The position numbers and the translations under genes are program-made. Source: an uncultured Opitutales bacterium (GTDB lineage: Bacteria > Verrucomicrobiota > Verrucomicrobiia > Opitutales > JABDGR01). From it: a stretch of DNA of 64,000 bases. The stretch is taken from NCBI GenBank assembly GCA_964562015.1, contig CAZLRH010000009.1:83557-147556 (forward strand), read 5' to 3'. A model generated the notes under the pieces. That model was not told the DNA's origin and made no database searches. It was given only the letters and a program-made list of their open reading frames with translations. Shown piece after piece: positions 3,093-48,534 of this stretch (the first letter of the stretch is position 1; each line of letters starts with the position of its first letter).

Positions 3093-4604
3093 CTACAATT
3101 GCAGTTGGTCAAGGACTTCCTGAATTTGCCGTTTGGCGGCGGGATTGCCAATGATGATGAGTATGCGGCCGGTGTCGTTTTGATCGATCGTTAACATTTC
3201 AATCTGTTGCATGAGGCCGGAATCTTGCAACCCTGCGACCATCTTATCCGCACTACTGAAGGGAAAAGGAAAGCTCATGTATTGCAACGGCGGGGCGGAG
3301 GGGTCGGCGTCAATGCTGATGTTATTTCCCAGGAGGGCGAATTTGTACCCGAGCGGGCGAAGCACGACTTCATACACCGTTTTCCAATCCACGTGGTGAA
3401 GAGTAACGGACGTGAGGCCCGCCAGCGCCGGTGGAAAATCAACCGTGAGGTTCGCCGCGGCGGCGGTGTCGCGCAATACCGTGGGTATGTCGGCATTGGC
3501 ATAGTCCACCAAAGGAAATAGCAGCGGACGTGGTTGGGTGGGGCGGATATAAGCGCCCGGTGCCGTGGGGAGGCGGCCAGTCATGGAAGGCACGGGCGTA
3601 AAATTTCCAGTCGCTGGATCGAGGCGCGACCAAGGGATGGCGGTATTTCCCGGCGTAGTATCGGTCGTTGCAGATGCAGGAGATGACGTGGGTGGAGCGA
3701 TGCGGGTTGAGGTGCTTGCTGGAGCGTTTGCCGTTAAAGTTGACGGGACTGGTACGGGCGGCGGTGTCTGCGGGGTTGAATCTGAAGCCCCCACCGAAAC
3801 CGGCGGGCTAGGGGGCAGTTGCTGCTTGACCAAGAGCGGAGATGGAGGGCGAAAGATGAGAGTTATCCCGAGGGCGACCAAGGCCAGCACGGTCGCGATA
3901 ATGAGAGTGAGTTTGGAGGAAATCATTGAGGTGAGTGGAGAAAAGGTCAAAGGAGCCACGATGGCCGCCGGGGCCGCCATGGCGGTGGCCGAGATGGACG
4001 TCACCAAGCCGGAGGGCACTGTCGTTTTGGCTCCAACATCGAGCGAGGTGGCTAGCAGCGCAGTGGAAAGAGTGAGGCCGCGTCGGGAAAGATGTGCGCG
4101 CATTTTTTCGAGTGCGCGGGCCACTCGTTTCTGCGCCGCCGCCTCGCTCAAGGCCAGGGCGCGGCCAGTTTCCTGCAGACTGCGGCCGTCAAAGAAGCGC
4201 AATAAAAGGGCGTCCTGGTCCACGCGCTTGAGGCGGCCCAAGGCATCGTCGAGCAAAGGGGAGAGATTATCCCAGCGGGTGGCCTGATCGTTTGTTTGTT
4301 CGGCGAGATTCATGGCTTGGGTTTCCCGTTGGCGTCGGCGATGCTCGCCCCGTTGGAGGTGGAACACTTCGCGCTGGGTGGTCCGGTACAGCCAGCCCGG
4401 CAGCGTCTGGCAGCCGCGCAAGCGGGCGGCTTGGCACGAAAGTTGAATAAAGACATTTTGGGCCACGTCCTGGGCGGCGGATGGCTGTTGCAGCATCCGC
4501 AGCGCCGTCCCGTAGACCAGCGGCAAATGCCGGTGTACCAATTCCCTAAAGGCCGATTCCGATTTTTCCTCGGCGTATTTTCTCAATAATTCGGCGTCTT
4601 CCAT
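3093..4604 (-). CDS. ECF sigma-70 factor fused to a TM helix, Pro/Thr linker and STN + secretin-N-like periplasmic domains
   Basis: Sigma2 (DAELLRKY..AFRELVHRHLPLVYGTALR..AQDVAQNVF) and sigma4 (LLLRFFDGRSLQETG..AAQKRVARALEK). TM at about aa 232-250. C-terminus resembles STN (ADIPTVLRDTA..VTLHHVDWKTVYEVVLRPLGY..GNNISI) and a NolW-like domain (LIIIGNPAAKRQIQEVLDQL). Confidence 0.85.
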   Translation of the reverse strand: MEDAELLRKYAEEKSESAFRELVHRHLPLVYGTALRMLQQPSAAQDVAQNVFIQLSCQAARLRGCQTLPGWLYRTTQREVFHLQRGEHRRRQRETQAMNLAEQTNDQATRWDNLSPLLDDALGRLKRVDQDALLLRFFDGRSLQETGRALALSEAAAQKRVARALEKMRAHLSRRGLTLSTALLATSLDVGAKTTVPSGLVTSISATAMAAPAAIVAPLTFSPLTSMISSKLTLIIATVLALVALGITLIFRPPSPLLVKQQLPPSPPVSVGASDSTPQTPPPVPVPSTLTANAPASTSTRIAPPTSSPASATTDTTPGNTAIPWSRLDPATGNFTPVPSMTGRLPTAPGAYIRPTQPRPLLFPLVDYANADIPTVLRDTAAAANLTVDFPPALAGLTSVTLHHVDWKTVYEVVLRPLGYKFALLGNNISIDADPSAPPLQYMSFPFPFSSADKMVAGLQDSGLMQQIEMLTIDQNDTGRILIIIGNPAAKRQIQEVLDQLQL

Positions 4605-4611
4605 GGGGGCG

Positions 4612-4649
4612 TTTATTATAATAAGCCCGCCGCCCGCGGAAATAAGACA
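4612..4649 (-). promoter_or_regulatory. Putative ECF-type promoter of the 3093-4604 gene
   Basis: Coding strand TGTC-N15-GCGGG-CTTATTATAATAAA, 45 nt before the ATG. The same layout occurs before the other two ECF paralogs. Confidence 0.55.
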
Positions 4650-4699
4650 AAAATCTTCTTTATTCTGGAGATGAGGGATGCCGCCGGCGCGAAATCGTC

Positions 4700-4738
4700 A
4701 AAAAAAAAATCTGCCGAACCCAAACGGGTTCGGCAGAT
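4700..4738 (-). terminator. Rho-independent terminator after the 4768-6264 gene
   Basis: Perfect 13-bp stem ATCTGCCGAACCC-aaac-GGGTTCGGCAGAT next to a 10-A run (U-tract on the minus strand). Confidence 0.85.
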
Positions 4739-4767: not shown

Positions 4768-6264
4768 TTACGGCGTCTGGTCCGACGACCTGAAGGTCAC
4801 AATCTGCCCGGGGCCGCCTGGCGTGGGAAACGAGCCTGGAGTTGAGCCCGCCGGCAGGGTCTGCGTGGTGATGACGCCGTCTTTGTTCGTCGTCACCGTG
4901 ATGGTGCCATCGGGATTTTTCACGCTTTTGCTGCTGAACTTGCTGGTCGTGAAGACACCGCTCGCTGTGCCCGCCGGATTGGCCAGCATAATCGTCCCGC
5001 TGGGACCGTTGCTGACGGCGCTGCCGGACGAGAAAGTGCCGGGATTGCCACTGCTGCCGCTGATGACCACGGTGGCTCCGCCATTGCTGGAACTCGTGGT
5101 GAAGGTCCCCGAAGCGGGAACGTTGACCGTGCGCGTGGTGCTGACGCCATTTTCCGTTGTGGTGAGGGTTGTGGTTCCTTCCGCCTCTGTCTGGAGGCTT
5201 TGACTGGAAAAATCGAGGGTTCCCTCAGTCGAGGCAGGATTCAAAACGAGCACGCCCTCGGTGACCATGGTTGCAGTCCCGGAATAATCAGGGGAAGGAA
5301 CATAAGCGGAAGCCGTTTCTGTTGCTGAAACCGAAGCCTCGGTTGCGTCAGGGACATTATTGACCGCAGCGGTGACCGGCGCCGCGACTGGGGCCGCCAC
5401 CCGCGGGCCGGCCTGGCGAACAGCCGCAGATTCGGGTGCGGGGGACACCGAGGCGCGGGATTGGATGGCCGGCGGGAGGGCGCCGGATGTGGACGGTTGA
5501 TGCGGCCAAGCGTAGGCGGCAAAACCGGCGACCGCCAAAGTGGCGAGCGAAGCGAGGGCGATTTTTGAGGTAAACATGGATTTAAGGGAGGTTAGAGAAA
5601 GACTCGTGGCTGCGCCTGCGCCGCTCAGCGCCGTGGCGGAAACTTTGGCCGCCAGCCCGAACGGGGCCGGCACGGCGGCGTTGGTATCGAGCGTGGTGGC
5701 GAGCAGGGCCGTGGAAAGCGTGAGCCCCCGTTTCGTCAAAAATCCGCGCAATTTATCCAACGCGCGGGCGACCCGCTTTTGGGCGGTGTCGTCGCTGAGG
5801 CCAAGTTCACGGCCAATGCACTGAAAATCCTGTTGCTGCAAATAACGCAGCACGATGGCGTCGCGGTCCGTGGCATTGAGGCCGTTGAGCGCTTCATCGA
5901 GCACCGGCGCAATGTTTTCCCAGGCAGTGGCGCGGCCGGACTTTTCTTCGAGAGCGTTGATTTCCATAAAAATCCGGTCGCGGGAGCGCCGCCGTTGTTC
6001 CGTACGCACCGCCTTCGCTGCCGTGAAGCAGGTGTGCCGGTGCAGCCAGCCGCCCAAGATTAAGTCGGCAGGCAGGGATCCCGCCTTGCGCGCCAAATCG
6101 GTGAACACGATTTGCGTAACGTCTTGCGCGAGATGGGTGTCGCCGGCGACCAGCCGGCGGGCCGTGGCATGGACGAGCCCGACGTGACGCTCTACCAATT
6201 CCCGAAAGGCTTGGTCGGAGCCTTCACGGGCGTATTGGCGCAGAAGTTGGGTGTCGTCGTTCAT
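4768..6264 (-). CDS. ECF sigma-70 factor fused to a TM helix and a Ser/Thr/Gly-rich extracytoplasmic tail
   Basis: MNDDTQLLRQY..AFRELVERHVGLVHATARR..LAQDVTQIVF and sigma4 (RDAIVLRY..TAQKRVARALDKLR). TM at about aa 235-252. Start placed at ATG 6264 by alignment with the paralogs. Confidence 0.85.
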   Translation of the reverse strand: MNDDTQLLRQYAREGSDQAFRELVERHVGLVHATARRLVAGDTHLAQDVTQIVFTDLARKAGSLPADLILGGWLHRHTCFTAAKAVRTEQRRRSRDRIFMEINALEEKSGRATAWENIAPVLDEALNGLNATDRDAIVLRYLQQQDFQCIGRELGLSDDTAQKRVARALDKLRGFLTKRGLTLSTALLATTLDTNAAVPAPFGLAAKVSATALSGAGAATSLSLTSLKSMFTSKIALASLATLAVAGFAAYAWPHQPSTSGALPPAIQSRASVSPAPESAAVRQAGPRVAAPVAAPVTAAVNNVPDATEASVSATETASAYVPSPDYSGTATMVTEGVLVLNPASTEGTLDFSSQSLQTEAEGTTTLTTTENGVSTTRTVNVPASGTFTTSSSNGGATVVISGSSGNPGTFSSGSAVSNGPSGTIMLANPAGTASGVFTTSKFSSKSVKNPDGTITVTTNKDGVITTQTLPAGSTPGSFPTPGGPGQIVTFRSSDQTP

Positions 6265-6270
6265 CGGCTG

Positions 6271-6308
6271 GTTTATATAATAGAACCCGCCGCAAGGCGA
6301 TTCCGACA
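6271..6308 (-). promoter_or_regulatory. Putative ECF-type promoter of the 4768-6264 gene
   Basis: Coding strand TGTC-N14-GCGGG-TTCTATTATATAAA, 44 nt before the ATG. Confidence 0.55.
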
Positions 6309-6447
6309 AGAAATCGCCCCAAACCAGGGACGCCGCCGGCGGCGACCCTACGGTCCAAACGACATAATTTGTAGGCGCCGCTGGCGACGGCCCATGGTCA
6401 CGGCTTCTGTTTCAAAATATAAACCATCCCAGCCTTCCGAGTCAGGC

Positions 6448-7956
6448 TTATCCGCCCACGCCGCCGCGGCCACCACCACCGCCGCCGAAGCCGCCGCCGT
6501 TGCCCGTGCCGCCACGATTGGCGCCCGCCGCCGGTTGGGCTGGAGCCGCGCCTGCGCCAGCATTCGGATCCCACGGGGCCAGGCGGTTGGCATTATTGAC
6601 AAAACCCGCGCCCATGCGGTTGAGGCGGTTAAGGGGACGCGTGTTGGCCGGATCCAGATTGTTGACCCAATCTGAAATCGCCTGTTTTTCATCCGCGGAA
6701 ATGTTGGGGTTCGCCTGCACGAATTTAAGCCCGCTTTGCGGGTCGTTCGCGATTTGGCGCGCAATGACGGAATCAATGATGCGCCCGGTGAGATTGGGGT
6801 CGGAAACGTGGGACGTGGCCCACATCACTGCGGTTTCCGGGTCCACGCGCCCGGCGCTGGTGGCGAAATTCACGACGGCCGGATCAGTGGCGGGAGAGGC
6901 GGGCAGGGCGCCCAGAATTTGCGCGGCGCTATTGAGGTCGTAACGCGTCAACGTGCGAATGGAATTCGCCAGCGCCGTGCCGGGCTGGTCGGTGCCGTTT
7001 TGGAGCGAAGCTTGGTCGAACTGGACGGCCCAGGCCGCGGCGGCCATCGGGTCGTTGCGCGTCCACGCCGCGACGACCTGGTTGCCGAGTTGCGCGCGTT
7101 GGGCCGGGTCGGTCAGGGTGGCCACGTAGTTCGCCGCGTCTGTCGGCGAATTTTGGGCCCAGCGGTTGAGCAACTGGGTGGAGGCGGCGGTCTTGGCGTC
7201 GTCGGGCAGCGTGGAGAACAATTTCACGGCGTCCTCGAATTTGCCGTCATCGGCGAGCGCGTTCGCCACGGCCTGGTAACTCTGGCGCTGCAAATTGCGG
7301 TCCGCCAAGGTCGAGTTGCCAAAGCTGGCGACGATGTCCAGCGCGCCCTGCGGATCCGTCGCGGCCATGCCGCCGAGCGCGGCCCGGTAACGCGCATTGA
7401 TTTGCTGCGGCGGCAGCGCTTCTTTTTCCTGGCCCAGCCAGGCCAGGGCGGCCTTCGGGTCATCCTTGGCCCACGACTTCAAGGCCGTGGCTACGCCCGC
7501 CTCGCGGGCCGACGGGTTGGTGATGTTGCTATGGGCGAGGAGGAAAGTAGACGGCGCTTTTTCGGCCCAGGAGCTGACGAGGGCGGCGAACATGGCGTCG
7601 CGCTGCATCCCGGCCGGCATGTCTTGCAGCGATTGGATGAATTCGGCGTAGTCGTTCGGGTCCACGCTGTCCGCCCAGAGCTTCAGCAACGCCGGATCCA
7701 GCTTGTTCTTATTCGCCAGCATTTCCTGAAAGGTCGGCAGCTTGCCCACCAAGCCGATGGGCGAGCCATCCGCTCCCGGCGCGCCATTGCCGCCGATGCT
7801 CATGGTCGCGCCATGGTCGGTGGAAGACTTGCCGGGTTTGCCGGTGGCGACTTTGCCGGTTTCCGGCGCGTGGTGGGAGCCGGCCCAATAGGAAAGGACG
7901 CTGCTGGCGGCCCAGACGGCGGCGAAGCCGAGGTATTTGAGGGATTTCGAATTCAT
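6448..7956 (-). CDS. Membrane-anchored or secreted helical-repeat protein (W-x3-DP-xAAxxW repeats) with a Gly-rich C-terminus
   Basis: N-terminal hydrophobic segment (MNSKSLKYLGFAAVWAASSVLSYWAG) and about 9 repeats of ~33 aa (e.g. WAKDDPKAALAWL, WTRNDPMAAAAWA). Confidence 0.8.
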   Translation of the reverse strand: MNSKSLKYLGFAAVWAASSVLSYWAGSHHAPETGKVATGKPGKSSTDHGATMSIGGNGAPGADGSPIGLVGKLPTFQEMLANKNKLDPALLKLWADSVDPNDYAEFIQSLQDMPAGMQRDAMFAALVSSWAEKAPSTFLLAHSNITNPSAREAGVATALKSWAKDDPKAALAWLGQEKEALPPQQINARYRAALGGMAATDPQGALDIVASFGNSTLADRNLQRQSYQAVANALADDGKFEDAVKLFSTLPDDAKTAASTQLLNRWAQNSPTDAANYVATLTDPAQRAQLGNQVVAAWTRNDPMAAAAWAVQFDQASLQNGTDQPGTALANSIRTLTRYDLNSAAQILGALPASPATDPAVVNFATSAGRVDPETAVMWATSHVSDPNLTGRIIDSVIARQIANDPQSGLKFVQANPNISADEKQAISDWVNNLDPANTRPLNRLNRMGAGFVNNANRLAPWDPNAGAGAAPAQPAAGANRGGTGNGGGFGGGGGGRGGVGG

Positions 7957-8174
7957 GGGGTACGTGGGGATGCTGCGATGGACGAGACCGGGCAAAGAAC
8001 AAAACCGAGGTGCGGCGCAGGGTGACGCCGTCAGGGGAATCTAGGTGGTGGGCGATGGGGCTGTCAACCGGTCGTTTGTCGGCTAGAAACCGGGCGATTT
8101 CGTCTCAATAAAAAATAATGAAAGAATATTTTATCCTTGATAAAAGGTCTCACCTCCGGCTCGCTCTTTCGAAA

Positions 8175-9287
8175 ATGAGCTTTGTTTTTTGGCGTCGCCT
8201 ATTGCTCAACATTGCCCTCAGTGGAGGTGCGCTGGCCGCGCTCTCGCCTGGGGTTAGGGCAGTCGTTTCCTACACCCTGACGGATTTGGGGTCGTTGGAC
8301 AATTCCTCGAACCTCTATTCCAGTTTTGCTACTGGCATTAATGCGTCGGGCGAGGTGTCGGGTTATTCCTACACCTCGGTGAGTGCTGGAAGTCACGCCT
8401 TTCTCTATTCCGGCGGCGTGATGTCCGATATCGGCGGGGGGAATAGTGTCGCCAATGGCATCAACGATTCCGGTCAAGTCGTCGGCTACATCACGGGCAT
8501 AGATGGGTTTCATCATGCTTTTCTCTATTCCGCTGGCAATTTAACTGACCTCAGTCCGCAAGTCGGGGTCGACACGATCGCTTATGCCATCAACAACAGC
8601 GGCCAAGTCGTTGGCAAAGGCCCGACTTTTTCCAATTCCTTTTTTTATTCCGGCGGGGTCGGGACTCTCTTCAATACGCTGGGGGCCGCGCGCGCCCTTA
8701 ACGATTCTGGAAATTTCGCCGGCGGGGGCGCCAATTTTGCCTATGTGGTCAATAGTGGAATAATGACGAATTTCGGCACCCTGGCGGGCGGAGGGCCCGC
8801 CCATGGTTACGGCATGAATAATCAAGGCGACGTGGTGGGTGCTGCGGATTTCAGCTTTCCGAGCGCCTACGACTTGATCGTGTATCACAATGGGACGCTT
8901 TTGGATCTGGGCCGCGCTGCTCCCACGGCCGATACCTATGGTTATGATATAAATGCCACGGGCCAAATTGTCGGCGAGTACAGATACACTTCGATGAGCG
9001 GTTTGGTTGACCAAGGTTTCCTTTATGAGAATGGGTCGTTCACCGACATGGATAGCTTACCCATTATCAATCTTGGGACCTGGCACGACATTTTCGCGAC
9101 AGCCATCAATGACAACGGCCAGATCGCGGGCTGGGGTACGGACGGAACCGGACGGACCCATGCCCTCCTTATTTCGCCGGTGCCTGAACCGGCGGCGTTT
9201 GCCTTTGGGGTAACGCTGACGGCCGGGCTGGTTGCATTGAGCAGACGGTATTATTCTCGCGCGGTGACCCGGCGGACTAGTCGTTGA
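8175..9287 (+). CDS. PEP-CTERM surface protein with HAF-type extracellular repeats
   Basis: Signal peptide, repeats such as AxxINxSGxVxG..HAFLYSGGxMxD(L)G, and a C-terminal VPEP motif followed by a TM helix and an Arg-rich tail. Confidence 0.88.
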   Translation: MSFVFWRRLLLNIALSGGALAALSPGVRAVVSYTLTDLGSLDNSSNLYSSFATGINASGEVSGYSYTSVSAGSHAFLYSGGVMSDIGGGNSVANGINDSGQVVGYITGIDGFHHAFLYSAGNLTDLSPQVGVDTIAYAINNSGQVVGKGPTFSNSFFYSGGVGTLFNTLGAARALNDSGNFAGGGANFAYVVNSGIMTNFGTLAGGGPAHGYGMNNQGDVVGAADFSFPSAYDLIVYHNGTLLDLGRAAPTADTYGYDINATGQIVGEYRYTSMSGLVDQGFLYENGSFTDMDSLPIINLGTWHDIFATAINDNGQIAGWGTDGTGRTHALLISPVPEPAAFAFGVTLTAGLVALSRRYYSRAVTRRTSR

Positions 9288-10406: not shown

Positions 10407-12341
10407 TCACTGGCCGATATTCGCATGGCCCAAGATTTGTTTTTTTGCGTCGTCGGACAAACTCGTCTGATTCAGCCAGCTTGTCGCTGCCGTTGGATCA
10501 GTTCTCGTCCAATCGCGAATGACCCGGTCAATGGTGTTGGTCCGTGTCTGTTCATCGGTAAGAGACTCGGCCCAAGGCGCTGCCGCCGCTGGATTTATCG
10601 GGGACAGCACACTGACATAAGCTCTGACCGCGTTCTGTTGGGCAAAACTGGGCGGCAATGTTTTGAGCCATTCCTCAGCGGCGGCAGGGTCGGCATCCAC
10701 CCATTTGTGCATAACTCCCAGCGCGGGGCCAAATTGATTTTGGCCGGCATTGGGCAGCGTGGCGATAAAGCCCATCGCCTGGGTTGGTTCCATCACTGGG
10801 AGGATCCCGGTCATAGCCGCGGATTTGTCGGAGTCGTTTGGCAACGCATTGGCCCAATTAAACGCCGCCTGGGCGTCGGATTTGCTCAGAGTGGCACCAA
10901 GCGACATCAGTGACATCGTACGTTGGTCGCCCGCCGGCAGCGCAAGTGTTTGTTTAATCGCCGCATGGGGGTCCTTTTTCGCCCAGCTGGCCATGAGGGA
11001 GGCCAAAGTTACGGGCGACGCATCCGGCCCGGCTAATTGCACCGCAACTTCCGGGTTGGTCTGGGCCAAGATATCCAAGAATTGCGACATCATCTCGTCG
11101 CGAGCCGAGCCGTGTGGAAGCTGCTGCACCCAGGCCCAGGCTGTGCTTGGATCTTTTTGCGCCCATGCTTCAAGAATCTGGCGCACTGCGATTTGGCGGG
11201 CCCGGGTTCCTTCAATTGTTTGTGCATATGCAAGTGCGGCGGCCGGGTCTGTGCGCACCCAGCGGTCGAGGATTTCCCTCATCAACAAGTCGCGTTCGGA
11301 GCCGCCTTCATGGTCGGCGTAGGCCAGCGCCGCGGCCATGCTTTGATTATCCAGCTGGTCGAGGAATTGGTAGAAAGCCTGCTTCGATGCGTCCGAATAC
11401 GCGCCGCTTTTCATCTCCACAATGACTTCCGCCAGCGCCGCCTGAATTTCGTCGAGGTTGGATGCCTCGGCGACCGATGCACTTTGTCCCATGGATGCGG
11501 ATGGCGCCGACCGGGGCCCGAGCTTCTTGACGGTGGAATTCCGCTCGTCGAGCCGCGCCTGCAGTTGGGCAATCTCGCGGTTTTGGGAAACGATGAAGGC
11601 GGCGGCCGAGACGGCCACGGCGGCGACAAGGATGGTTTTGATTTTCATGGTCATAAAAAAGATTTTCCAAACGGCGTGCGCCAATCCGCCCGCGCTTGTC
11701 GAGCCGGCCAAGGAGGCGCCTGTAACCTTGGCCGTTAAACCGGCCGGCAAGGGCGTGGCAGCCTGAACGGTAATCGCTGTGGCCAGGAGAGCCCCCGTGG
11801 TCGTCACGCCCTGCCGGGCGAAATGCCGGCGCATTTTTTCCAAGGCGCGTTCAACTCGCTTGTTTACCGTATTTTCATCCAGATGGAGAATCGCGGCCAC
11901 TTCGCGGTAGCTTTTGCCTTGGAAAAAGCGCAAAAGCACGGCATCGCGATCAGTTTCTCCGAGTTGGCCCACCGCCTCATCCAGAACGGGCCGCAGTTGT
12001 TCCAAACTTATTTCCTGAACTGGGTTGGGTTCATGCATGGCGACAGCTTTTTGTTCACGCACCTGGCGGCGCCATTGGCTACGCAGCGTTTTATGGGAGA
12101 GATAACGCGTGCTGGTGTGCAGCCATCCCGCCAAAGTTTCATGCCCGGACAACACACGGGCCTTCCGTGCCAAGTCGGTGAACACTCCTTGCGCTACGTC
12201 TTCGGCCAGATGAGCGTCACCAGCCAACAGACGGAAGGCGGTGCTGTAGACCAGGCGCAGGTAGCGTTGCACCACTTCGGCAAAGGCGGCCTCGTCGCCG
12301 GTTTCGGCATACTCGCGCAAGAGCTCGTGGTCTGGAGTCAT
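10407..12341 (-). CDS. ECF sigma-70 factor fused to a TM helix and W-DP helical repeats
   Basis: MTPDHELLREY..AFAEVVQRYLRLVYSTAFR..LAEDVAQGVF and sigma4 (RDAVLLRFFQGKSYREVA..KRVERALEKMRR). TM at about aa 236-252, then about 9-10 W-x3-DP-xAAxxW repeats. Confidence 0.88.
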   Translation of the reverse strand: MTPDHELLREYAETGDEAAFAEVVQRYLRLVYSTAFRLLAGDAHLAEDVAQGVFTDLARKARVLSGHETLAGWLHTSTRYLSHKTLRSQWRRQVREQKAVAMHEPNPVQEISLEQLRPVLDEAVGQLGETDRDAVLLRFFQGKSYREVAAILHLDENTVNKRVERALEKMRRHFARQGVTTTGALLATAITVQAATPLPAGLTAKVTGASLAGSTSAGGLAHAVWKIFFMTMKIKTILVAAVAVSAAAFIVSQNREIAQLQARLDERNSTVKKLGPRSAPSASMGQSASVAEASNLDEIQAALAEVIVEMKSGAYSDASKQAFYQFLDQLDNQSMAAALAYADHEGGSERDLLMREILDRWVRTDPAAALAYAQTIEGTRARQIAVRQILEAWAQKDPSTAWAWVQQLPHGSARDEMMSQFLDILAQTNPEVAVQLAGPDASPVTLASLMASWAKKDPHAAIKQTLALPAGDQRTMSLMSLGATLSKSDAQAAFNWANALPNDSDKSAAMTGILPVMEPTQAMGFIATLPNAGQNQFGPALGVMHKWVDADPAAAEEWLKTLPPSFAQQNAVRAYVSVLSPINPAAAAPWAESLTDEQTRTNTIDRVIRDWTRTDPTAATSWLNQTSLSDDAKKQILGHANIGQ

Positions 12342-12350
12342 TTGGTGTTT

Positions 12351-12384
12351 TCATAGTAACACCCGCAGGCACGGAAAACTGACA
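12351..12384 (-). promoter_or_regulatory. Putative ECF-type promoter of the 10407-12341 gene
   Basis: Coding strand TGTC-N14-GCGGG-TGTTACTATGA, 43 nt before the ATG. Confidence 0.55.
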
Positions 12385-12701
12385 ATAAAGTTCAGGTTTG
12401 GATCGATAATCGCCGCACGGACCTGGACTACGGTGGTGCCGTCGTTTACGCCTGATGAAGCCCGCTGACTTCAACAAGGCGGGGATGGTCGTCGCTATCC
12501 ACTTGCTGAAATTTGCGGCTAAAAGGTGCTCCAACCCCGCCCTTAGGCCCGCCGAAAGATTGCAATTCCACGCTTGATGACCGCCGGGGGATGCCTCACT
12601 CTGGTCGGAAACCCGGAGCGATTCAGACCGAAGAGGGGGCATTTGTACTGCAACCCTGCCACTGAAGAGTGACGGCCCAGCGGCCCCCCAAAGCAGATTA
12701 C

Positions 12702-14672
12702 ATGACGGACCAAGACACCTCCGCGCCCTTGCCGGCGCCGGAACCCACCGGTTCCCACGACCCGAGTCAGGCCAGCCTTGACTTGAGCGTGCTCAAAAAC
12801 ATTTCGTTTGGCCCGGACTGGAGCGCAACGCCCAGCACGGAAGCCCTCGTCCGCAAAGTCGGCGGCCGGGGCGGCCGGGACGACGGCCGCGACCGTGGCG
12901 GCCCGCCCGGAGGCCGTGATGGTCCGCCCCGGCGCGACCGTCGGCCCGCCCGCCCGCCCGCGGGTCCCGGTGGCGGCTTCGAAAATCGCGCCCGTCCGGC
13001 GGGCGACAACGGCCCCGGCTTCTCCGGCCCGCCCATGGATCGTGGCGGCGACCGCGGTGGTCCCCGTTTTGATCGCGGCATGCGCCAGGATGGCCCCCGT
13101 GGCCGGCGCGATACGCCTCCGCCGTTCCAGCCCACGCTCAGCGTGCTGTTTTACCCGGACGACAATGCCTTTCGCGCGCTGACCAAGGCCATCCGCACCT
13201 CCTGCCGCACTTATGAATTGTTCGAGGTGGCCCATCTCATTTTGGGCAAACCGGAGCGTTTTGTGGTTGTGCTCCAGCCGCCGCCCGACCGCGACGGCAA
13301 GCCCGGGCAGGTTTTTATCGCCCAGCCCGATCACCTGCCGTTCGAGACCGAGGAAGATGCCGTCAACCACGTCTTTGACCAACACCTCGAAAAATTCTGC
13401 GACACCGAGACCGTGGACGTGGAACCGCCCAAGGGCAATTTCGTGGGCATCAGCAAATGCGGCCTCACGGGAGAATTGATCGGGCCGCCGAATTACCACC
13501 GCTATCCCCAGTTGCTCCGCGAGCACCATGCGCGCCGCCTGGGCCGCACGCCCTACGAACGCTTTGCCTCGCGGGTGGAATTGGTGAAGGAGCCCGAGGC
13601 CATCGCCGCCTGGCTCGAAAAGATGAAAAAGGCCACGCGCTACAAGCTCAAGGAGCCCATCGCCGGCGCGCCGGAGTTTTTTGAAACCGTGGACGCCGCC
13701 CGCCAGTTTTTGCTCCAGCATAAGAAGGACCTCATCGTGCGGGCGCTGGAGACGGCGCGTTACCCCGGCAAGATGATGGACCAGTTTCCGCAGGGCGACA
13801 TCCGCCGTTCCGTGGAGGCCGTGCTCGACCAGCAGCGGCGCTTCCCGCTCGACACCGCGAACAATTTGCGCGGCCGGTTGCGGCGCATGAAGTTCAATTT
13901 GTATAAGAAGGGCTCGAAGGGCGTTTCGTACGTGTGCGCCGTCAAGCGCCGCTTCCGCGATCCGCAAACCGTGCTGGCCGACCACGTGAACAAGTTGATC
14001 TCGTTCCTGGAACAGCACCCGATGATCGTGGTTTCCCGCCTGGCGCACGAATTTTTGGGTTTGCCCCTGCCGCCCACGCCGGTGGCGGCGGCTCCCGCTG
14101 CGATCGCGGCGGTGCCTGCGCCGGTCGCGGAAGTTCCCGCGCCCGTGGCCGAGGCTCCGGTGGCGACATCGGGAGAAACGCCTGCGCCGGTCGCGCCCGA
14201 AACGGCGGCTGCGCCGGTGGGCGAAAATGGTACGGCTCCGGTCGCTGCCACAGAAGCGCCGAAGAGCGAACCCGCTCCCGCCGTGCCTGCCGCGTCGCAT
14301 CTCTCTCCCGAACAACAGCAGCAATTCCGCGAATTGGTTATTAATGTGAAGTGGCTGGTGAGTTCGGGCTACGTCGTCGAGTACGGCGACGGCAAATTGT
14401 TTGCGCTGCCCGTCGTGGAACCGCCGAAGGTCAAGGCCGCCGAGGGCGGTGCCACGCCTGCGACTGGCGAAGAATCCGACGAACTCGGCGAAACCGAGGA
14501 CACCGACGAAGGTGAAGCCGCGCTCTTGTCCGGCGAAGCCCCGGAGATTCCCGGCGGCGACGAAGCGGGGCCGTTGCTCGGCACGCCCGTGGGCGAGCCT
14601 GCGGCAACGTCCGCTGCCGCCGTCGAGCCGCCGGTCGCGACGCCTGCGTCCGAATCGTCCCCCAGCGCTTAG
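12702..14672 (+). CDS. Hypothetical protein with an RGG/Pro-rich N-terminus, a globular core and an acidic Ala/Pro-rich C-terminus
   Basis: Strong GC-biased coding pattern. Core at about aa 140-460 is non-repetitive (CGLTGELIGPPNYHRYP, LRGRLRRMKFNLYKKG). Function not recognised. Confidence 0.75.
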   Translation: MTDQDTSAPLPAPEPTGSHDPSQASLDLSVLKNISFGPDWSATPSTEALVRKVGGRGGRDDGRDRGGPPGGRDGPPRRDRRPARPPAGPGGGFENRARPAGDNGPGFSGPPMDRGGDRGGPRFDRGMRQDGPRGRRDTPPPFQPTLSVLFYPDDNAFRALTKAIRTSCRTYELFEVAHLILGKPERFVVVLQPPPDRDGKPGQVFIAQPDHLPFETEEDAVNHVFDQHLEKFCDTETVDVEPPKGNFVGISKCGLTGELIGPPNYHRYPQLLREHHARRLGRTPYERFASRVELVKEPEAIAAWLEKMKKATRYKLKEPIAGAPEFFETVDAARQFLLQHKKDLIVRALETARYPGKMMDQFPQGDIRRSVEAVLDQQRRFPLDTANNLRGRLRRMKFNLYKKGSKGVSYVCAVKRRFRDPQTVLADHVNKLISFLEQHPMIVVSRLAHEFLGLPLPPTPVAAAPAAIAAVPAPVAEVPAPVAEAPVATSGETPAPVAPETAAAPVGENGTAPVAATEAPKSEPAPAVPAASHLSPEQQQQFRELVINVKWLVSSGYVVEYGDGKLFALPVVEPPKVKAAEGGATPATGEESDELGETEDTDEGEAALLSGEAPEIPGGDEAGPLLGTPVGEPAATSAAAVEPPVATPASESSPSA

Positions 14673-24239: not shown

Positions 24240-25916
24240 TCAGTTCTTTGCGCCCGCGCGGCGGCCTTTCCACGCCTGCCACAGGGGCCACAGCACGAAC
24301 AGCATCGGCAGCCAGCAAAGCACGAGGAACCAGCGCGAGCCGGCCAAGCCATCCTGCGCCACTTTGAAAAACGTCCGCCCTTGAATAAATGCTTTGGCGG
24401 CTTCGTCATTGGCATGGAGCGCGGAGGCCGCGCCCCCGAGCGCGAATTGTTTCGCGACCGCCGCTCCGCCGCAGGCCGCCTCCCACGCCAGGGCGCAACC
24501 GCCAAACGCAAAGTTGCCCACGGCCACTCCACCCATCGCCCACCAGCCGGCGGCCACGCCGCCGCCCGCCCAAATTCCCAGCGCGGCCCCGCCAACGGCC
24601 AGCAAGCCAAAGGCCGCGCCGCCAAAGCTAATCAACCCCACGGTCATTCCACCGAAACTTAACGGTGCGATCGCCACGCCGCCTGCAGCGCACAATCCTC
24701 CAATGGCGAAATCTCCGCCCGCAATCCAGCCGACCGCCGGGCGCAACTTTTCCTCGTCCCGCCGGCCGGCGCGGATATGCACCAGAGGCAAACCCAGAAA
24801 ACTCCAAGCACTGCGGTATTCTTTGACCGGCCAGAAATCGAAACGCACTTTGCTCGGTTCGACGGGTGTGGGTCCCACATTTTGTTCCGCTCGCAATTGC
24901 CGCAATCGTTGATTGGAACGCAGCGCGAACGGGACCAGCAGCGCCACATACGCGGCCCAAATTCCCGCAAACCCCAGCACCGTCAGCAACGGATTAACCG
25001 CCCACAAATCTTCGAAGAAAATACTCCAAAGGGCGGTCAAGACCACGACCACGGCCACCAGCGCCACGATGGTCCAGGCATTTTTCTTGATCATTTTTTT
25101 CTCTTCGGCGGAGCGCGCGAACTTGAGTTGCACACTGACGCCGACCCACCCGCCCACGATTCCCAGCACCGGGCCCAGCACCGTGGCCGCGAGTCCCGCC
25201 CAGCCCAGGCCGCCGGCCATCGCTCCGCCCTTGGCCATGCCGGCGCCCATGGCGCCAATTTTTCCCGACACAGCCAGCATCGGCAGCGCGGCCTGTACGC
25301 TGAGCGTAAAAGCAGTCCCCGGTCCGCTGCGACCCAGTGCCGTTTCCACAAAGGCGAGCATGCGCTCCTGCAACATTTTCCGCCCGCGGGACAGGCGCTG
25401 CATGACCGCGTCCTCGCTTAGTTCCAAGGCTTCAGCTACGCGTGCCACCGACTGTTCGCCGCGATAATACAACACCAGGGGCTCGCGATAGAGTTCCGGC
25501 AGTTGCCCGAGTTCGCGCCAGAGCAGGGCGGATTCCTCGCGGCTGATGGCTTGGGCCGCGGGCGGTGGTTCCGACGCGGGCAGATTTTCTGCGGCCTCCA
25601 GCGTTGCGGCGGCATGCGACGGCTCGCGTCCCAACTGCCGCCGGTCTTGGTTAATAGTGTGGCGCGCAATGCCGCACAACCAGGAGCGAAGTTTGGCGGG
25701 CTCGCGCAGTTCGCCCAGGTGCTGCCAGGCCGCGATGAATGTCTTCTGCGCCAGGTCTTCGCTTTGGCTTACGTTGCCGGTGGCGCTGTAAGCCAGGGCG
25801 CAAACGAGCGCCTGGTAGCGCGCGACGATTTGCCCGAAGGCCTCGCGCTGGCCTTCGAGGCTTTGGGCCACGAGCGCGGCGTCTGGGGCGGGTGCGATGG
25901 ATTCAGTGGTTGGCAT
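24240..25916 (-). CDS. ECF sigma-70 factor fused to a polytopic membrane domain with Gly-rich hydrophobic repeats
   Basis: DAALVAQSLEGQREAFGQIVARYQ..SEDLAQKTF..LRSWLCGIARH; LPELYREPLVLYY..QRLSRGRKML; then several TMs and EYRS..FLGLPLVHI..GWIAGGD..GG repeats. Start ATG 25916. Confidence 0.85.
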   Translation of the reverse strand: MPTTESIAPAPDAALVAQSLEGQREAFGQIVARYQALVCALAYSATGNVSQSEDLAQKTFIAAWQHLGELREPAKLRSWLCGIARHTINQDRRQLGREPSHAAATLEAAENLPASEPPPAAQAISREESALLWRELGQLPELYREPLVLYYRGEQSVARVAEALELSEDAVMQRLSRGRKMLQERMLAFVETALGRSGPGTAFTLSVQAALPMLAVSGKIGAMGAGMAKGGAMAGGLGWAGLAATVLGPVLGIVGGWVGVSVQLKFARSAEEKKMIKKNAWTIVALVAVVVVLTALWSIFFEDLWAVNPLLTVLGFAGIWAAYVALLVPFALRSNQRLRQLRAEQNVGPTPVEPSKVRFDFWPVKEYRSAWSFLGLPLVHIRAGRRDEEKLRPAVGWIAGGDFAIGGLCAAGGVAIAPLSFGGMTVGLISFGGAAFGLLAVGGAALGIWAGGGVAAGWWAMGGVAVGNFAFGGCALAWEAACGGAAVAKQFALGGAASALHANDEAAKAFIQGRTFFKVAQDGLAGSRWFLVLCWLPMLFVLWPLWQAWKGRRAGAKN

Positions 25917-26010
25917 GTCACCCCTTAAGTGGCGCAAACGGACGCCAACCTGACCGGAAATTTTGCGCCTGCCGATTCGGCTGCAAATCCGCGGCGAAGT
26001 TCGCCCGCAT

Positions 26011-28401
26011 TCAATAAACGACAATCACTTCATGATCAACCACCGTGGCCACCGTGAAGCGCACCCAATTGTCCGCGACCGTCAAATTCGTCACTTTCGG
26101 GCCCACGAGTGCATCGGCGACGGGATGCAAAATGTCCGGCGGCAGTTTAATACCGACATCGAGCGGGCCGACGGGGATGAACTCTTCCGCCGGGGCGCGC
26201 CAGGTCGAGGCATTGGTCAGGTTGACGAGGTGCAGAATCAGGCGCGGCGGTTTCCGGTCTTTGGTAATGGGATCAAGGTGCGTTGCCTGGTAATAAAGTT
26301 GGCAGTCGATAAAGCCGGGCCCGGAGACGGCCAGCGGTATGCAAACCTGGGCATTATCGTCATTGGCGGCCCAACGCGCGATGTTGGCGAGGAGGTCGCC
26401 GTGGTCCGGGATGTTGTCCCGCGCATACCGGCGGTCCAAATCGGCCAGCAGGTAGGCGACCCGCGCCGTGCCGAACGAATGCAGCACCAGGGCCGTGGCA
26501 TCGGATTTCGTGACTTCCATGTAGGCCTCCTCCGTGGGCGTCGTTTGGAACGGCGGCACGAAGGTCACGGTATCCAATTCGTCGGGCTCGACATGGGCGG
26601 GCACCAGCGTGCCGCCGTACGGAATAAGATTCGTCGCCTCGAAGCCGGCCAGCACCGGATGCCGTTTGACGGTGGAGTCGGAGCTTCCGTCAGTCTTGGG
26701 ACCGTCGATGTCCGGGCTCATTTCCGGCGTGAGGCGCAAATAAGACTGCACGTTTTCTCCGGCGGCCTGCACCCGCGCGGCCTCCTGGCGCACCCGCGCA
26801 CCATCGGGAATTTGCGAACGGAAGAGGTCCGACAGCGCAAAGTCCGGCAGCGCGTCGCCATTTTCATCAAACAAACTCGTGAGTCCGGTGGCGAAAACGC
26901 ACCCGCCATTTTTGACCCAGGCTTGCACTTGTTTGACCTGGGGGTCCGTCATCACGCCGAGGTTGGGAAAAATCAAAAGCTGCAGCGGGCCGGGCTTGGC
27001 GGGCAGGTCGTCGGCATGGATCATCACGTACGGAATCCGCGCCCGTAACAAAGCCTGCGTGATGCCGCGCTGCGGCAGGTTGACCATCAATTCCGCGTGG
27101 TCGCGCCCGAAATAGTCGTTGTTGCGCTGGGACCACACCACGCCGACGGTCGCCATGGGGACGCGGTTGTAAAGGAAGTCCTCCTGGGTTTCATGCCACT
27201 TGAACAGGGACACGGGAGTGGGGTACATGCGCCGGTCTTCACCATAAGCGCCCACATAGTGCCAGCTGGGCTGGATGCCGCCGGCATAGCCATCGAGGGT
27301 CCACAGGCGTACCTCCGACTCGGGCTTGGTGACGCCCCGGAACACCGGATCCGCCAAGTCGTACATGGCCTGGCTTTCAGCGACGGGTTTTTGCCAGCCC
27401 AGCATCTGATGGTAAAGCTTGCCGGCCTCGCCATTGGCCTGCACGCCGGTGCGGTCGGTGCGGCGCTGGTAGTCGAGGTAGATGATTTCCGAGCGGTGGC
27501 AGATTTCCCGGACATCGCGGAAATTCGCCGCCTGGACTTCGACCGTGCCGTCATTCATGCCGAGCCAGAGGCAGTCTTTGCCGCCCGCGCTGCGGGTAAG
27601 GTTGTTGTTGGCGTCCCACAAGGTGAGGCGCAGCCCGTAATTCCAGTCGAGCCAGGTGCGGTAGGTGGGATCCTCCCAGTCCTTTTTCGGGGGCAAATCC
27701 AGTTTGTACTTCTTGAAAAAGGCCGTGACACAGTTCTGGCAGTAGCAGATGAGGTCGCGCGGCAGGCCGCTCCAACTGGTGTCCACGAAACCATCGGGGC
27801 GATAGACCTTGAGCACCATGCGGATCATATTTCCGATCCAGACCGAATAGTACGGACTGTTAACACAAGGAATATAAAGGCCGCGCCCCAGATAATGCTG
27901 CCCCTTGGCGTCCACGGTAAACCAGTCCGGGTTGGCGTCGAAGGCCATTTGCTTCGCACCGCTGGAGTCCATCCGCGCCAGCACAATCAAATGCTCCTCG
28001 CGGGCGGCCTTGGTCAGCGCGCCGAACAAGTCGAAATTATTCAGGTATTTTGCCTGCTCGTACGGCGGGAGCACCGGGAAGAACTCCACGATGCCGCCGG
28101 CGTCGATCACCACGGCCTGGATCTTCGTGCGCCGCCACTCCTCGCGCCACCAAGCGATGTCATAATGGGCCGGGTCCCTTTCGGTGATGCTCGTGTGGCC
28201 CCAGCGGCGCGCCCACTTGTACCACGGGTCCGTGTGCACGATGCCCGCGGCGTCGGTAAAGGTCGGCGTGGCCTGGGCCGTGGCGGCGGCCAGCGGGCCC
28301 AGCCGCGCCCCAGCCAGCGCAGCCGAGGTGAGCACGGTTTTTTTCAAAAAGCTCCGGCGGGTTTCGAGGCCCGGCGCCGGCGTGGGGTCATCGGCATGCA
28401 T
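26011..28401 (-). CDS. Tat-exported putative glycoside hydrolase (GHL6-like TIM barrel plus beta-galactosidase trimerisation-like domain)
   Basis: Twin-arginine signal TRRSFLK; QAVVIDAGGIV, DLFGALTKAAR, PCVNSPYY, PDGFVD, CYCQNC; C-terminal LLIFPNLGVMTD..GG. Start ATG 28401. Confidence 0.7.
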   Translation of the reverse strand: MHADDPTPAPGLETRRSFLKKTVLTSAALAGARLGPLAAATAQATPTFTDAAGIVHTDPWYKWARRWGHTSITERDPAHYDIAWWREEWRRTKIQAVVIDAGGIVEFFPVLPPYEQAKYLNNFDLFGALTKAAREEHLIVLARMDSSGAKQMAFDANPDWFTVDAKGQHYLGRGLYIPCVNSPYYSVWIGNMIRMVLKVYRPDGFVDTSWSGLPRDLICYCQNCVTAFFKKYKLDLPPKKDWEDPTYRTWLDWNYGLRLTLWDANNNLTRSAGGKDCLWLGMNDGTVEVQAANFRDVREICHRSEIIYLDYQRRTDRTGVQANGEAGKLYHQMLGWQKPVAESQAMYDLADPVFRGVTKPESEVRLWTLDGYAGGIQPSWHYVGAYGEDRRMYPTPVSLFKWHETQEDFLYNRVPMATVGVVWSQRNNDYFGRDHAELMVNLPQRGITQALLRARIPYVMIHADDLPAKPGPLQLLIFPNLGVMTDPQVKQVQAWVKNGGCVFATGLTSLFDENGDALPDFALSDLFRSQIPDGARVRQEAARVQAAGENVQSYLRLTPEMSPDIDGPKTDGSSDSTVKRHPVLAGFEATNLIPYGGTLVPAHVEPDELDTVTFVPPFQTTPTEEAYMEVTKSDATALVLHSFGTARVAYLLADLDRRYARDNIPDHGDLLANIARWAANDDNAQVCIPLAVSGPGFIDCQLYYQATHLDPITKDRKPPRLILHLVNLTNASTWRAPAEEFIPVGPLDVGIKLPPDILHPVADALVGPKVTNLTVADNWVRFTVATVVDHEVIVVY

Positions 28402-29973: not shown

Positions 29974-32160
29974 TTACGCCAGATCAATGGTGCGGGCCGC
30001 AGCCTCGCCGCTGAGGGCCGCGCCTTCGAGCGTCGCGGGCAGGCCGGTGTCCGTCCAGTCGCCGGCCAGGAAAAAATTCTTCCACGGCGTACGCGGGCCG
30101 GGGCGGAAGCCTTCGGCGGCGGGCGTGGCGGCGAAGGTCGCGTCCTTCGTCTTGATGACCAATTCGCGGCTGAATTTGGCCTCGCTGACCGCCGGGAAGA
30201 AACGCGCGAGCTCAGTGCGCAGCGCGGCCAAAATCTCGTCGCTCTTGCGATTGAGCCAGGTCTCGCCCGCGGCGCTCATTGTGACTGCGTAGAGAAATTC
30301 CTTGCCCTGTCTCTCGGTCGGCAAATGGTCCGAACGGTCGAAGACCCAATGGAAGGGTGAATCGAGCAGGCCCGCGAAGGGCACGTCGAACAAGGGCCGG
30401 TCGCACAGCAAATGGATATTCAAAATCCCCGCCGGCTTGAGTTCCTGAAGTTGCGTGCGCAAGGGCGCGTCTTCCGGCAGTACCGCCCGCAGCGCCATCC
30501 ACGGCAGCGCGGAAATAAAATAATCCGCCGCGATGGTTTCGCCGCGTGAGGTTTCGGCCGACACCACTTTGCCGCCGGCAAAATTTAATTGGGAAAGTTG
30601 CGTGCCGTAATGCAAAGAACCTCCCGTGGCCGCCAGGAACCGCTCCGCCTCGGGCCGGAACAAGTCGCTCAACCCGACGCGGGAAAAGAAAATCGCCGAG
30701 TCTCCACGTTTCCCAAAAAGCGAGCGCCGCAAGGTTTCGTGCAGCAAGCGCGCGCTCGCGGTGGCGAGCGGTTCGTTCAACGCCGCGATGCAAAACGGTT
30801 CCCAGAGCGCGCGGATCGCCCCGGGTGTCTGGCCGTTTTCCTCCAGCCACGCCGCGGCGGTCTGATTCGCATTCGGCCGCCAGCCCCAGCGCATGAACAG
30901 GCCCAGTTTCAAAATGGCGGTGCGGTCTTCGACGTTGAGCGCGCCAAACCCGAGCAGCGCGGTCAGCAAGTGCAAGGGCGCAGGGAGTTCACCAGCTTGC
31001 ATGCGCGACCGTTTCCCGCCGGGCTCAACATAGTCGACCGCCAACCCCGCCGCTTCGGCGAGACGGTCGCGCGTGCCTAATCGATCCAACAGGCGCAGAA
31101 ATCCGTGGTAGCAACCCATGACGATATGCTGGCCATTATCCAACGTCAGTCCGCTAGGGGCGTCGCGCAAACTCGAGGCGCGGCCCCCCGGAAAAGTTTT
31201 CGCCTCGTAAACATCGACGGCAAAGCCCTGCTCGGCCAGTTGCATTGCCGCCGTGAGGCCCGCGACCCCCGCGCCAAAAACCGCCACGCGGCCCGGCTGC
31301 GCCAGTCGTTGGCCCGTCCGCCGCCGCGCGCCCAGCGTGCGGGCGACCAGTTGAAATTTCCTGAATTTGCTCAAACGGACGCGTTGTTCCGTAAGCTGAA
31401 AATTTCCCGCCGCGATTTTTTCCAAAATATCCTCATAAAAGGCGGCCATGATCAACGCTGCCTGCAAGCGTGGCCGGTCCGCTTCGGGCAGCAAACGGCG
31501 GGCCTTGTGGAAATAATGTTTCGCGCGGAAATACTGGAGGCGAAACAGCCGCGCGCACGCCGGCTGCGCATTCGGTTCTTCAAGGTCGCTCGCGGACACC
31601 CCGCAGGCGGTCATTTCGTCCTGCGGCAGGTAGATGCGCCCGTACAGGCGCTTGTCCTCCACCACGTCGCGCAAAATATTGGTCAACTGCAAGGCATAGC
31701 CGAGGTTTTCCGCAAATTCCGGGCAACGCGCATCACGGCAGCCGAAAATCTTGATGGACACCAGCCCCACTGCGGAGGCGACACCGTAGCAGTACTGGCG
31801 CAATTCCTCAAAATTCGCGTAGGTACGCGGCGCGATGTCGTGCGCCACCCCGGCCACGATTTCATGCAAATCTTTCACCACGACGCCAAAACGTGCCACG
31901 ACGGGCGCCAATTCCCGCGCCAGCGGCTGCGCGGGTGTCCGCCCATTCGCGATGGCGTCGAGGTCCGTCCGCCACGCATTGAGCGCGGCCGTTTTGGCGG
32001 CGGCCGGCGTGGCCGGGTCGTCCGAAATATCGTCCACCTGCCGGCAAAAGTCATAAAAAACCGACATGGCCGCGCGTTCCTCCGGTTGCAACGAGAGGAA
32101 GGAAAAGGCGAGGTTGGACTGGCGTCGCGCCTCGACGGCGGTGGACGGCACGGAAGACAT
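29974..32160 (-). CDS. hpnD-hpnE: Fused presqualene diphosphate synthase (HpnD) and hydroxysqualene dehydroxylase (HpnE)
   Basis: N-half: SNLAFSF..YDFCRQVDDISDD, YCYGVASAVG, LQLTNILRDV.ED..GRIYLP. C-half: VAVFGAGVAGLTAA (FAD), GGRASS, LDNGQHIVMGCY, FLAGDWTDTGLPATLEGAALSG. One uninterrupted 728-aa ORF. Confidence 0.88.
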   Translation of the reverse strand: MSSVPSTAVEARRQSNLAFSFLSLQPEERAAMSVFYDFCRQVDDISDDPATPAAAKTAALNAWRTDLDAIANGRTPAQPLARELAPVVARFGVVVKDLHEIVAGVAHDIAPRTYANFEELRQYCYGVASAVGLVSIKIFGCRDARCPEFAENLGYALQLTNILRDVVEDKRLYGRIYLPQDEMTACGVSASDLEEPNAQPACARLFRLQYFRAKHYFHKARRLLPEADRPRLQAALIMAAFYEDILEKIAAGNFQLTEQRVRLSKFRKFQLVARTLGARRRTGQRLAQPGRVAVFGAGVAGLTAAMQLAEQGFAVDVYEAKTFPGGRASSLRDAPSGLTLDNGQHIVMGCYHGFLRLLDRLGTRDRLAEAAGLAVDYVEPGGKRSRMQAGELPAPLHLLTALLGFGALNVEDRTAILKLGLFMRWGWRPNANQTAAAWLEENGQTPGAIRALWEPFCIAALNEPLATASARLLHETLRRSLFGKRGDSAIFFSRVGLSDLFRPEAERFLAATGGSLHYGTQLSQLNFAGGKVVSAETSRGETIAADYFISALPWMALRAVLPEDAPLRTQLQELKPAGILNIHLLCDRPLFDVPFAGLLDSPFHWVFDRSDHLPTERQGKEFLYAVTMSAAGETWLNRKSDEILAALRTELARFFPAVSEAKFSRELVIKTKDATFAATPAAEGFRPGPRTPWKNFFLAGDWTDTGLPATLEGAALSGEAAARTIDLA

Positions 32161-32217: not shown

Positions 32218-32232
32218 CGGAACCCGCCCTTG

Positions 32233-48493: not shown

Positions 48494-48534
48494 GGAAGAT
48501 TCGCGGATCGCAGTAAAAATTCAGGAAGCCAAAT

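Follow-up and report, generated by a model that had tools for sequence, protein, structure and literature searches.

A membrane-tethered ECF sigma factor read as carrying a secretin-type N0-N1 pair as its sensor in an uncultured Opitutales bacterium

We have analyzed a stretch of 64,000 nucleotides (hereafter the window) from an uncultured Opitutales bacterium of the Verrucomicrobiota (contig CAZLRH010000009.1, positions 83,557 to 147,556) and, within it, the gene located on the reverse strand at 3093-4604. We read its product as a one-component, membrane-tethered extracytoplasmic function (ECF) sigma factor in which a secretin-type N0-N1 pair acts as the sensor. The protein starts with MEDAELLRKY and goes from the sigma domain through a juxtamembrane segment, a single transmembrane (TM) helix and a proline and threonine rich linker to two small C-terminal domains (Table 1). 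A preliminary description of this DNA had proposed precisely this order (sigma2 and sigma4, TM helix, Pro/Thr linker, STN or N0, Secretin_N or N1), and each element was found where it had been located. The limits given there for the last two domains, residues 363-430 and 440-503, were accurate, since we found them at 366-433 and 441-500. The absence of a secretin beta-barrel was also borne out: there was no Pfam match to PF00263 in the protein, and in the alignment with secretins the stop codon of the open reading frame (ORF) comes directly after the last helix of N1.

Table 1. Position of the features of the gene at 3093-4604 and of the region upstream of it (numbering of the window).
Feature	Residues	Position	Strand	Basis
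Whole ORF, sigma–juxtamembrane–TM–linker–N0–N1	503 aa	3093..4604	-	ATG start; stop codon at 3093-3095
Sigma-70 region 2	22-88	4341..4541	-	Pfam PF04542, 36.1 bits (cut-off 24)
Sigma-70 region 4	118-170	4095..4253	-	Pfam PF08281, 37 bits; PF04545, 29.6 bits
Cytoplasmic juxtamembrane segment, Ala/Ser/Thr-rich	176-231	3912..4079	-	Conserved across the sigma-TM-X family (123 members)
Single TM helix	232-252	3849..3911	-	Kyte-Doolittle peak 2.74, centred on residue 241
Periplasmic Pro/Thr/Ser/Ala-rich linker, ~110 aa	253-365	3510..3848	-	Composition
Secretin-type N0/STN domain, beta-alpha-beta-beta-alpha-beta-beta	366-433	3306..3509	-	phmmer, query-free profile, model, Foldseek
Secretin N1-like (Secretin_N/KH-like) domain, probable, beta-alpha-beta-beta-alpha	441-500	3105..3284	-	Collinear alignment, model, Foldseek
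Candidate promoter element directly 5' of the ATG, TTGTC..TTTCCG..GCGGG..TTATTATAATAAAC		4611..4650	-	Shared with paralogues
Intrinsic terminator that ends the upstream paralogue gene, 13-bp stem, T10 tail		4699..4738	-	Sequence read

The gene was recovered more than once. A 187-kb ENA contig carries an identical protein with the same neighbors, and a 10-kb contig from a different run, assembled separately, carries the same protein with the same synteny; the two contigs differ by 1 mismatch in 10,181 bp. This recurrence in an independently assembled run rules out a chimera of the assembly. Neither can the ORF be the remnant of a truncated secretin gene, because only 25 bases separate its stop codon from the end of the convergent yicC gene and the identity to secretins is about 30%.

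The N-terminal part of the protein belongs to an ECF (group 4) sigma-70 factor, as both sigma2 and sigma4 scored above their cut-offs (the Sigma70_r4_2 match covering residues 118-168) and the other sigma regions, sigma1.1 and sigma3 among them, were unmatched. The general model TIGR02937 (sigma70-ECF, cut-off 42.9) gave 69.2 bits, and among the best 25 of 78 NCBIfam matches there was no FecI-type or other specific sigma model above cut-off. In the juxtamembrane segment of 55 aa that follows, neither reading of the sequence nor Pfam revealed a Cys/His zinc motif or a recognizable anti-sigma domain. Specifically, the zinc-binding HxxxCxxC anti-sigma domain of the ECF52/53 type is missing, residues 171-231 having no cysteine and no anti-sigma Pfam match. 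The TM helix is unambiguous by energy, with a Hessa-scale sum of -3.7 kcal/mol for residues 232-250 and +4.0 for the next best segment. A second helix at residues 199-217, which would leave the C-terminus in the cytoplasm, was ruled out by its insertion energy of +4.0 kcal/mol. A sigma domain has to lie in the cytoplasm, and as the chain crosses the membrane once we infer from the topology that the C-terminal part, with its N0-N1 pair, lies in the periplasm. The linker that leads to it is made up to 63% of proline, threonine, serine and alanine between residues 253 and 356, and the start of the single-sequence AlphaFold model described below had low predicted local distance difference test (pLDDT) values. 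No match to the FecR domain (PF04773) was found at E<=1, residues 253-365 being a low-complexity linker.

The identity of the C-terminus was less evident. By Pfam the STN and Secretin_N domains announced in the preliminary description could not be confirmed: STN gave no match with the whole protein or with C-terminal fragments, and Secretin_N (residues 445-501, E=0.075) stayed at 13.7 bits, below its gathering score of 28.2. A phmmer search of the C-terminus against the PDB sequences produced nothing at E<=10. The last 140 residues or so do match N0-N1 when profiles are used. We aligned 27 secretin N0-N1 segments (alignment A1), to which the query has identities of 18-32%, and a profile made from these segments with the query left out retrieved this ORF as its sole match among the 741 six-frame ORFs of the window (68.5 bits, E=2e-20). 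When the profile was split in halves, N0 obtained 52 bits and N1 9.9 bits. There was no other N0, N1 or secretin elsewhere in the 64 kb. Against the PDB, the A1 profile recovered the N0-N1 regions of GspD and PilQ at E values of about 1e-23 to 1e-17, and its matches were confined to GspD, PilQ, HofQ and LspD; no chain of a TonB-dependent transducer or of FecR appeared at E<=0.01. The pair is thus of the secretin type, as had been proposed.

Residues 345-503 were also compared exhaustively by phmmer with 1.84 billion representative proteins. There were 158 matches at E<=1e-3, and the domain counts that follow refer to the 149 non-self matches listed. The alignment ran from end to end over residues 366-501, without large gaps, in 51 of the 149. 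A secretin barrel was present in 60/149 and an M56 peptidase domain in 13/149; most of the other 76 (65/76) were shorter than 350 aa and resembled N-terminal fragments of secretins. The representative matches checked by Pfam (P0131, P0136, P0138, P0140, P0141 and P0144) were true secretins, with Secretin, Secretin_N, STN and type_II_gspD_N0. The highest-scoring whole-protein matches were BlaR1-type M56 peptidase membrane proteins (P0121-P0124, P0130, P0132 and P0134), of up to 1228 aa, in which the N0/STN repeat occurs once or several times, Secretin_N is sometimes present and a TonB_C domain is frequent at the C-terminus. One of these M56 sensors, P0132, also gave the best single-domain match to N0 (52.5 bits). 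The N0 domain is equally near the N0/STN repeats of these sensors and the secretins. To our knowledge there is no experimental work on BlaR1-type M56 sensors with N0/STN repeats.

Structure prediction gave the same picture. With alignment A1, AlphaFold2 produced a model with a pLDDT of 87.4 and the succession of strands and helices expected for N0 followed by N1 (Table 1), a value that is not independent of the sequence evidence since the alignment is one of secretin segments. The model from the single sequence had the same order of elements at a pLDDT of 52, and the fold search done with it retrieved KH-like folds and a few secretins, none at E<=1e-3. When the A1-based model was compared with the PDB by Foldseek, secretin N0-N1 structures took all of the first 43 places, with probability 1.0. 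These matches covered both domains, N0 being matched to GspD, PilQ and LspD, and the superpositions limited to N0 were of about 2.4-3.2 A. The signaling domains of FpvA and PupA were further down the list, at ranks 44 and 50. Platform proteins of the inner membrane dock on the N0-N1 domains of secretins, and the list includes several complexes with such partners: 3oss (GspC-GspD), 6hcg (PulD with the HR domain of PulC), 6rwk (MxiD N0N1 with MxiG) and 6pem (InvG N0N1 with PrgHK). We consider the N0 assignment firmly established, and the N1 assignment, supported only in its context, probable.

The sigma half of the protein belongs to a large family. At E<=1e-5 the whole protein had 305 relatives, all of which match only the N-terminal 35-70%, the best named ones coming from metagenome bins of Opitutales and other Verrucomicrobia. 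These paralogue-level matches by themselves make the Verrucomicrobia the probable phylum of the organism. Conservation among 123 family members comprises the sigma core and the juxtamembrane segment and ends at the TM helix. We call this arrangement sigma-TM-X (a sigma core, an Ala/Ser/Thr-rich juxtamembrane segment, a single TM helix and a variable periplasmic module), and the protein at 3093-4604 has all four parts. As far as we know the Verrucomicrobia family has no name, its members being annotated merely as sigma-70 family. The 119 relatives listed have other C-terminal modules, which include DUF3738, CarboxypepD_reg, POTRA, SecDF_P1_head, PDZ, HEAT, RCC1 and TPR. DUF3738/TIGR03435 is found in 12 of the 120 listed proteins, POTRA in P0022, SecDF_P1_head in P0034, and PDZ or CarboxypepD_reg among P0098, P0012 and P0017. 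These swapped modules fit the pattern expected of interchangeable sensor domains. Several of them are periplasmic domains of envelope machines, a parallel to N0-N1 in the protein at 3093-4604. The sigma-TM-X design is common; the combination with N0-N1 is unique in what was searched, and our literature searches found no description of a sigma–secretin-domain fusion or of the Verrucomicrobia sigma-TM-X family.

The window itself holds four sigma-TM fusions, all on the reverse strand: 3093-4604, 4768-6309, 10407-12341 and 24240-26024. The adjoining paralogue (4768-6309) is 45% identical over residues 2-245, and the similarity ends at the TM helix. Its periplasmic part is rich in Thr, Ser and Gly and has no Pfam match, that of 10407-12341 consists of helical 'DPxxAxxW' repeats, and that of 24240-26024, different again, is unassigned. 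The true starts probably lie 15 codons (4768-6309) and about 36 codons (24240-26024) downstream of the first possible start. Another gene of the same strand, 6448-7995, codes for a single-pass protein with no sigma domain and with repeats that match the periplasmic domain of 10407-12341 (BLASTP E=2e-10, 23% identity); judging by this resemblance, it may be a free-standing copy of the sensor module.

The gene at 3093-4604 is an isolated unit. The upstream paralogue ends in a strong terminator, read at 4738-4709, and, downstream, the yicC gene converges on the stop codon. The sigma gene is thus transcribed as a monocistronic unit, with no anti-sigma gene adjoining it, in agreement with the preliminary description. 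Variants of the element TTGTC..TTTCCG..GCGGG..TTATTATAATAAAC precede the ATG of three paralogous sigma genes of the reverse strand, here and at 6265-6310 and 12342-12390, that is, upstream of 4768-6264 and 10407-12341. This shared element is possibly a promoter. It stops about 10 nt before the start codon, and therefore the leader would be very short if it is one.

Taking all together, the explanation that we favor, with a confidence only slightly above even, is that of a tethered ECF sigma factor with an N0-N1 module that binds a partner in the envelope and that is released by proteolysis. The tethered sigma factor would be inactive while N0-N1 holds its envelope partner protein. Loss or alteration of this contact would open the periplasmic part to a site-1 protease like Prc/CtpA or DegS, a second cut, within the TM helix, would follow by a site-2 protease of the RseP type, and the freed sigma domain would bind RNA polymerase. 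The likeliest partner would be a GspC/PilP-type protein with an HR domain or the periplasmic rings of a secretin itself; a partner from the secretin world is favored because N0 is of the secretin subtype and N1 is present. This mechanism is proposed because of the precedents of IutY, of the STN contacts of FecR/PupR and of the reported protection of an anti-sigma factor by its transducer, all three compared below. Since N0, with or without N1, is also found in the BlaR1-type M56 sensors, a role as signaling input is not restricted to this protein.

Several observations weigh against this interpretation. Among the 119 sigma relatives listed none has N0 or N1, and among the 149 N0 relatives listed none has a sigma domain. 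Searches for related loci by way of the C-terminus gave none in genome contigs and none in metagenome contigs, and by way of the secretin P0131 none in genome contigs. The sigma–N0-N1 protein is thus a singleton, and the conservation of the fusion is therefore not demonstrable. The two contigs that carry the gene represent one population, as their single mismatch indicates, and are therefore silent on selection and provide no independent lineage. The standing of N1 is weak, as it had no phmmer matches of its own. A canonical anti-sigma domain is absent from the protein by Pfam, and the off-state of the tethered form is an assumption. In the 64-kb window and the 7 kb to its left there are no secretin, pilus, type II secretion or TonB-dependent receptor genes, and no site-2 protease or other protease gene was found there. 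As to the release mechanism, what the data establish is the single-pass topology that such a mechanism would require.

Different roles for the same domains have to be weighed here. It is possible, although on balance doubtful, that the protein is a monitor of a secretin machine, in which N0-N1 joins or competes with the N-domain rings of a type IV pilus or type II secretion system secretin, or competes for its PilP/GspC partner, so that the state of assembly sets the release of sigma. That the PDB matches of the A1 profile and the 43 best Foldseek matches are secretins, and not transducers or FecR, speaks for it, as does the order of N0 and N1 with a secretin-like spacing, which is the secretin arrangement. 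However, no secretin or pilus gene is linked to this one, the identity to secretins is only 18-32% and the best single N0 match belongs to an M56 sensor. The locus of the closest secretin, P0131, counts on both sides: the gene follows four others of pilMNOP-like sizes, the third with a weak PilO match (E=0.004), but the one of PilM size, of 349 aa, had no match that reached threshold, whether in Pfam or among PDB sequences. In this locus (L002 7096-12355, L003 3025-8284) P0131 has 784 aa and the genes before it code for 349, 212, 197 and 196 aa, with exbB/exbD-like genes upstream and a 2259-aa RCC1/WD40 protein downstream; a pilMNOPQ reading of this locus, from the gene sizes and the PilO match, is weak. 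We consider decidedly unlikely that the protein takes part in cell-surface signaling, with its STN binding the STN of a TonB-dependent transducer and a ligand at the outer membrane triggering sigma release. FecR-type regulators do end in an STN that contacts that of the transducer (PMC7186176), IutY is a sigma factor fused to such a regulator (PMC5411451), and the PupA and FpvA signaling domains do appear among the Foldseek matches. But these regulators have no N1 domain, among PDB chains the A1 profile picked out neither a transducer nor a FecR at the threshold mentioned, and the missing FecR (PF04773) match leaves no sequence sign of the CJM subdomain. The absence of a FecR domain, of a FecI-type sigma and of any receptor gene, adjacent or nearby, makes a FecA-type partner less likely.

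Two further explanations do without a regulated release. One is that sigma acts at the membrane while still tethered, or that N0-N1 serves to position the protein at an envelope machine, in the manner of ToxR or CadC. The lack of an identified anti-sigma domain or cleavage motif would agree with this, and the long flexible linker suits positioning, but a sigma factor must join the RNA polymerase core and open promoters, and IutY, the only one of such design that has been tested, needs proteolytic release (PMC5411451); we find this very improbable. To a recent and functionless shuffling, by which a sigma-TM paralogue took up the 5' portion of a gene like those of secretins, we give equally little credence. 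In its favor are the singleton status at 90% identity, the failure to find a second sigma with N0-N1 and the position of the gene within a tandem array of paralogues that are diverging. Against it, the reading frame is undamaged, its domains are cleanly delimited and it stops at the last N1 helix, the A1-based model is confident, and the gene is a terminator-bounded unit of its own with the upstream element of the family. The identity to any secretin is only about 30%, and therefore the capture was not recent.

Within the favored explanation of a tethered sigma released by proteolysis, a more specific and rather unlikely version is that N0-N1 acts as a decoy of secretin docking domains, competing for a PilP/GspC-type platform or joining the rings, so that the state of the machine would be read as release of sigma. 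Were it true, the sigma-TM-X family may wire domains borrowed from envelope machines as assembly checkpoints to transcription, the candidate modules being the secretin N0-N1, the POTRA of Omp85/TpsB and the SecDF P1 head. More generally, a tethered sigma of this kind would connect gene expression very compactly with the state of an envelope machine, sensor, tether and sigma being parts of one protein. The sigma-TM-X fusions and the N0/STN M56 sensors are two large Verrucomicrobia-type groups for which we know of no experimental study, and both suggest that secretin N0-N1 domains are general periplasmic signaling modules outside secretins. Modular one-protein sigma switches would be attractive parts for synthetic sensing circuits. 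The reach of the claim is that of a singleton from an uncultured organism.

The window contains other genes of interest. A DUF3466-like repeat protein on the forward strand (8118-9287) has a C-terminus that reads like PEP-CTERM, with VPEP, a hydrophobic stretch and an Arg-rich tail. At 12543-14672 two long ORFs of 593 and 667 aa overlap on opposite strands, neither with a Pfam match, and the gene call at the corresponding region of another contig (L004) is a product of 656 aa. The gene at 29974-33105, on the reverse strand, codes for a squalene/phytoene synthase domain fused to an amine-oxidase (HpnE-like) domain and adjoins a second SQS_PSY gene; by their domains, the two would be a three-step HpnCDE-type squalene route with two of the steps fused. 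Two large proteins of the reverse strand, 45965-48493 and 50991-52874, contain GAP1-N2 (E=2.6e-19) and match Double-GTPase 2 weakly. Between them are a GH3 glycosidase and an ORF of 973 aa for which Pfam gave no match. This locus (45965-52874) may be a GTPase-centred conflict system.

Among known systems, the secretins PilQ and GspD share with the protein at 3093-4604 the order of N0 and (here probable) N1, their spacing and their predicted folds. Unlike them, it has no signal peptide, the N-terminus being the sigma domain, and no N2/N3 or beta-barrel, and its N0-N1 closes an inner-membrane protein, whereas that of secretins opens an outer-membrane one. The BlaR1-type M56 sensors are also transmembrane transducers with an extracytoplasmic N0, with or without N1, and P0130 likewise ends in N0-N1, but their output is an M56 protease domain and not a sigma factor. 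The ECF52/ECF53 factors of Actinobacteria, such as SCO4117, for which activation by proteolysis has been proposed (PMC8999054, PMC5826349), are similar in having an ECF sigma followed by a C-terminal extension with a TM helix, a proline-rich extracytoplasmic region and a binding domain. They differ in their zinc-finger anti-sigma before the TM helix and their outer carbohydrate-binding domain, both absent here.

FecR and PupR are, like this protein, single-pass inner-membrane proteins that control an ECF sigma and have an STN-fold domain in the C-terminal periplasmic region. In them the C-terminal STN helps to bind the STN-fold signaling domain of the TonB-dependent transducer, as the STN of PupR does with PupB (PMC7186176), and a TonB-dependent transducer is reported to protect its anti-sigma factor from proteolysis (PMC11637429). 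They are, however, separate proteins with an N-terminal anti-sigma domain, a juxtamembrane all-beta subdomain and no N1, whereas in the protein at 3093-4604 the sigma is part of the same chain and the STN, of the secretin N0 subtype, is followed by the probable N1. The preliminary description knew of no characterization of this architecture, which holds for the exact sigma–N0-N1 combination but not for the design of a sigma, a TM helix and a periplasmic regulator, since IutY of Pseudomonas putida (ECF243) is a sigma/anti-sigma hybrid activated by sequential proteolysis by Prc and RseP (PMC5411451, PMC8999054). In IutY the periplasmic part resembles FecR and acts together with IutA, the receptor for aerobactin, while the protein at 3093-4604 has no FecR match, a long Pro/Thr linker with a secretin-type N0-N1 and no receptor gene nearby. 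Both are one polypeptide in which a cytoplasmic ECF sigma at the N-terminus is joined by one TM helix to a periplasmic part, with no separate anti-sigma, and IutY is the closest characterized analogue of the protein at 3093-4604.

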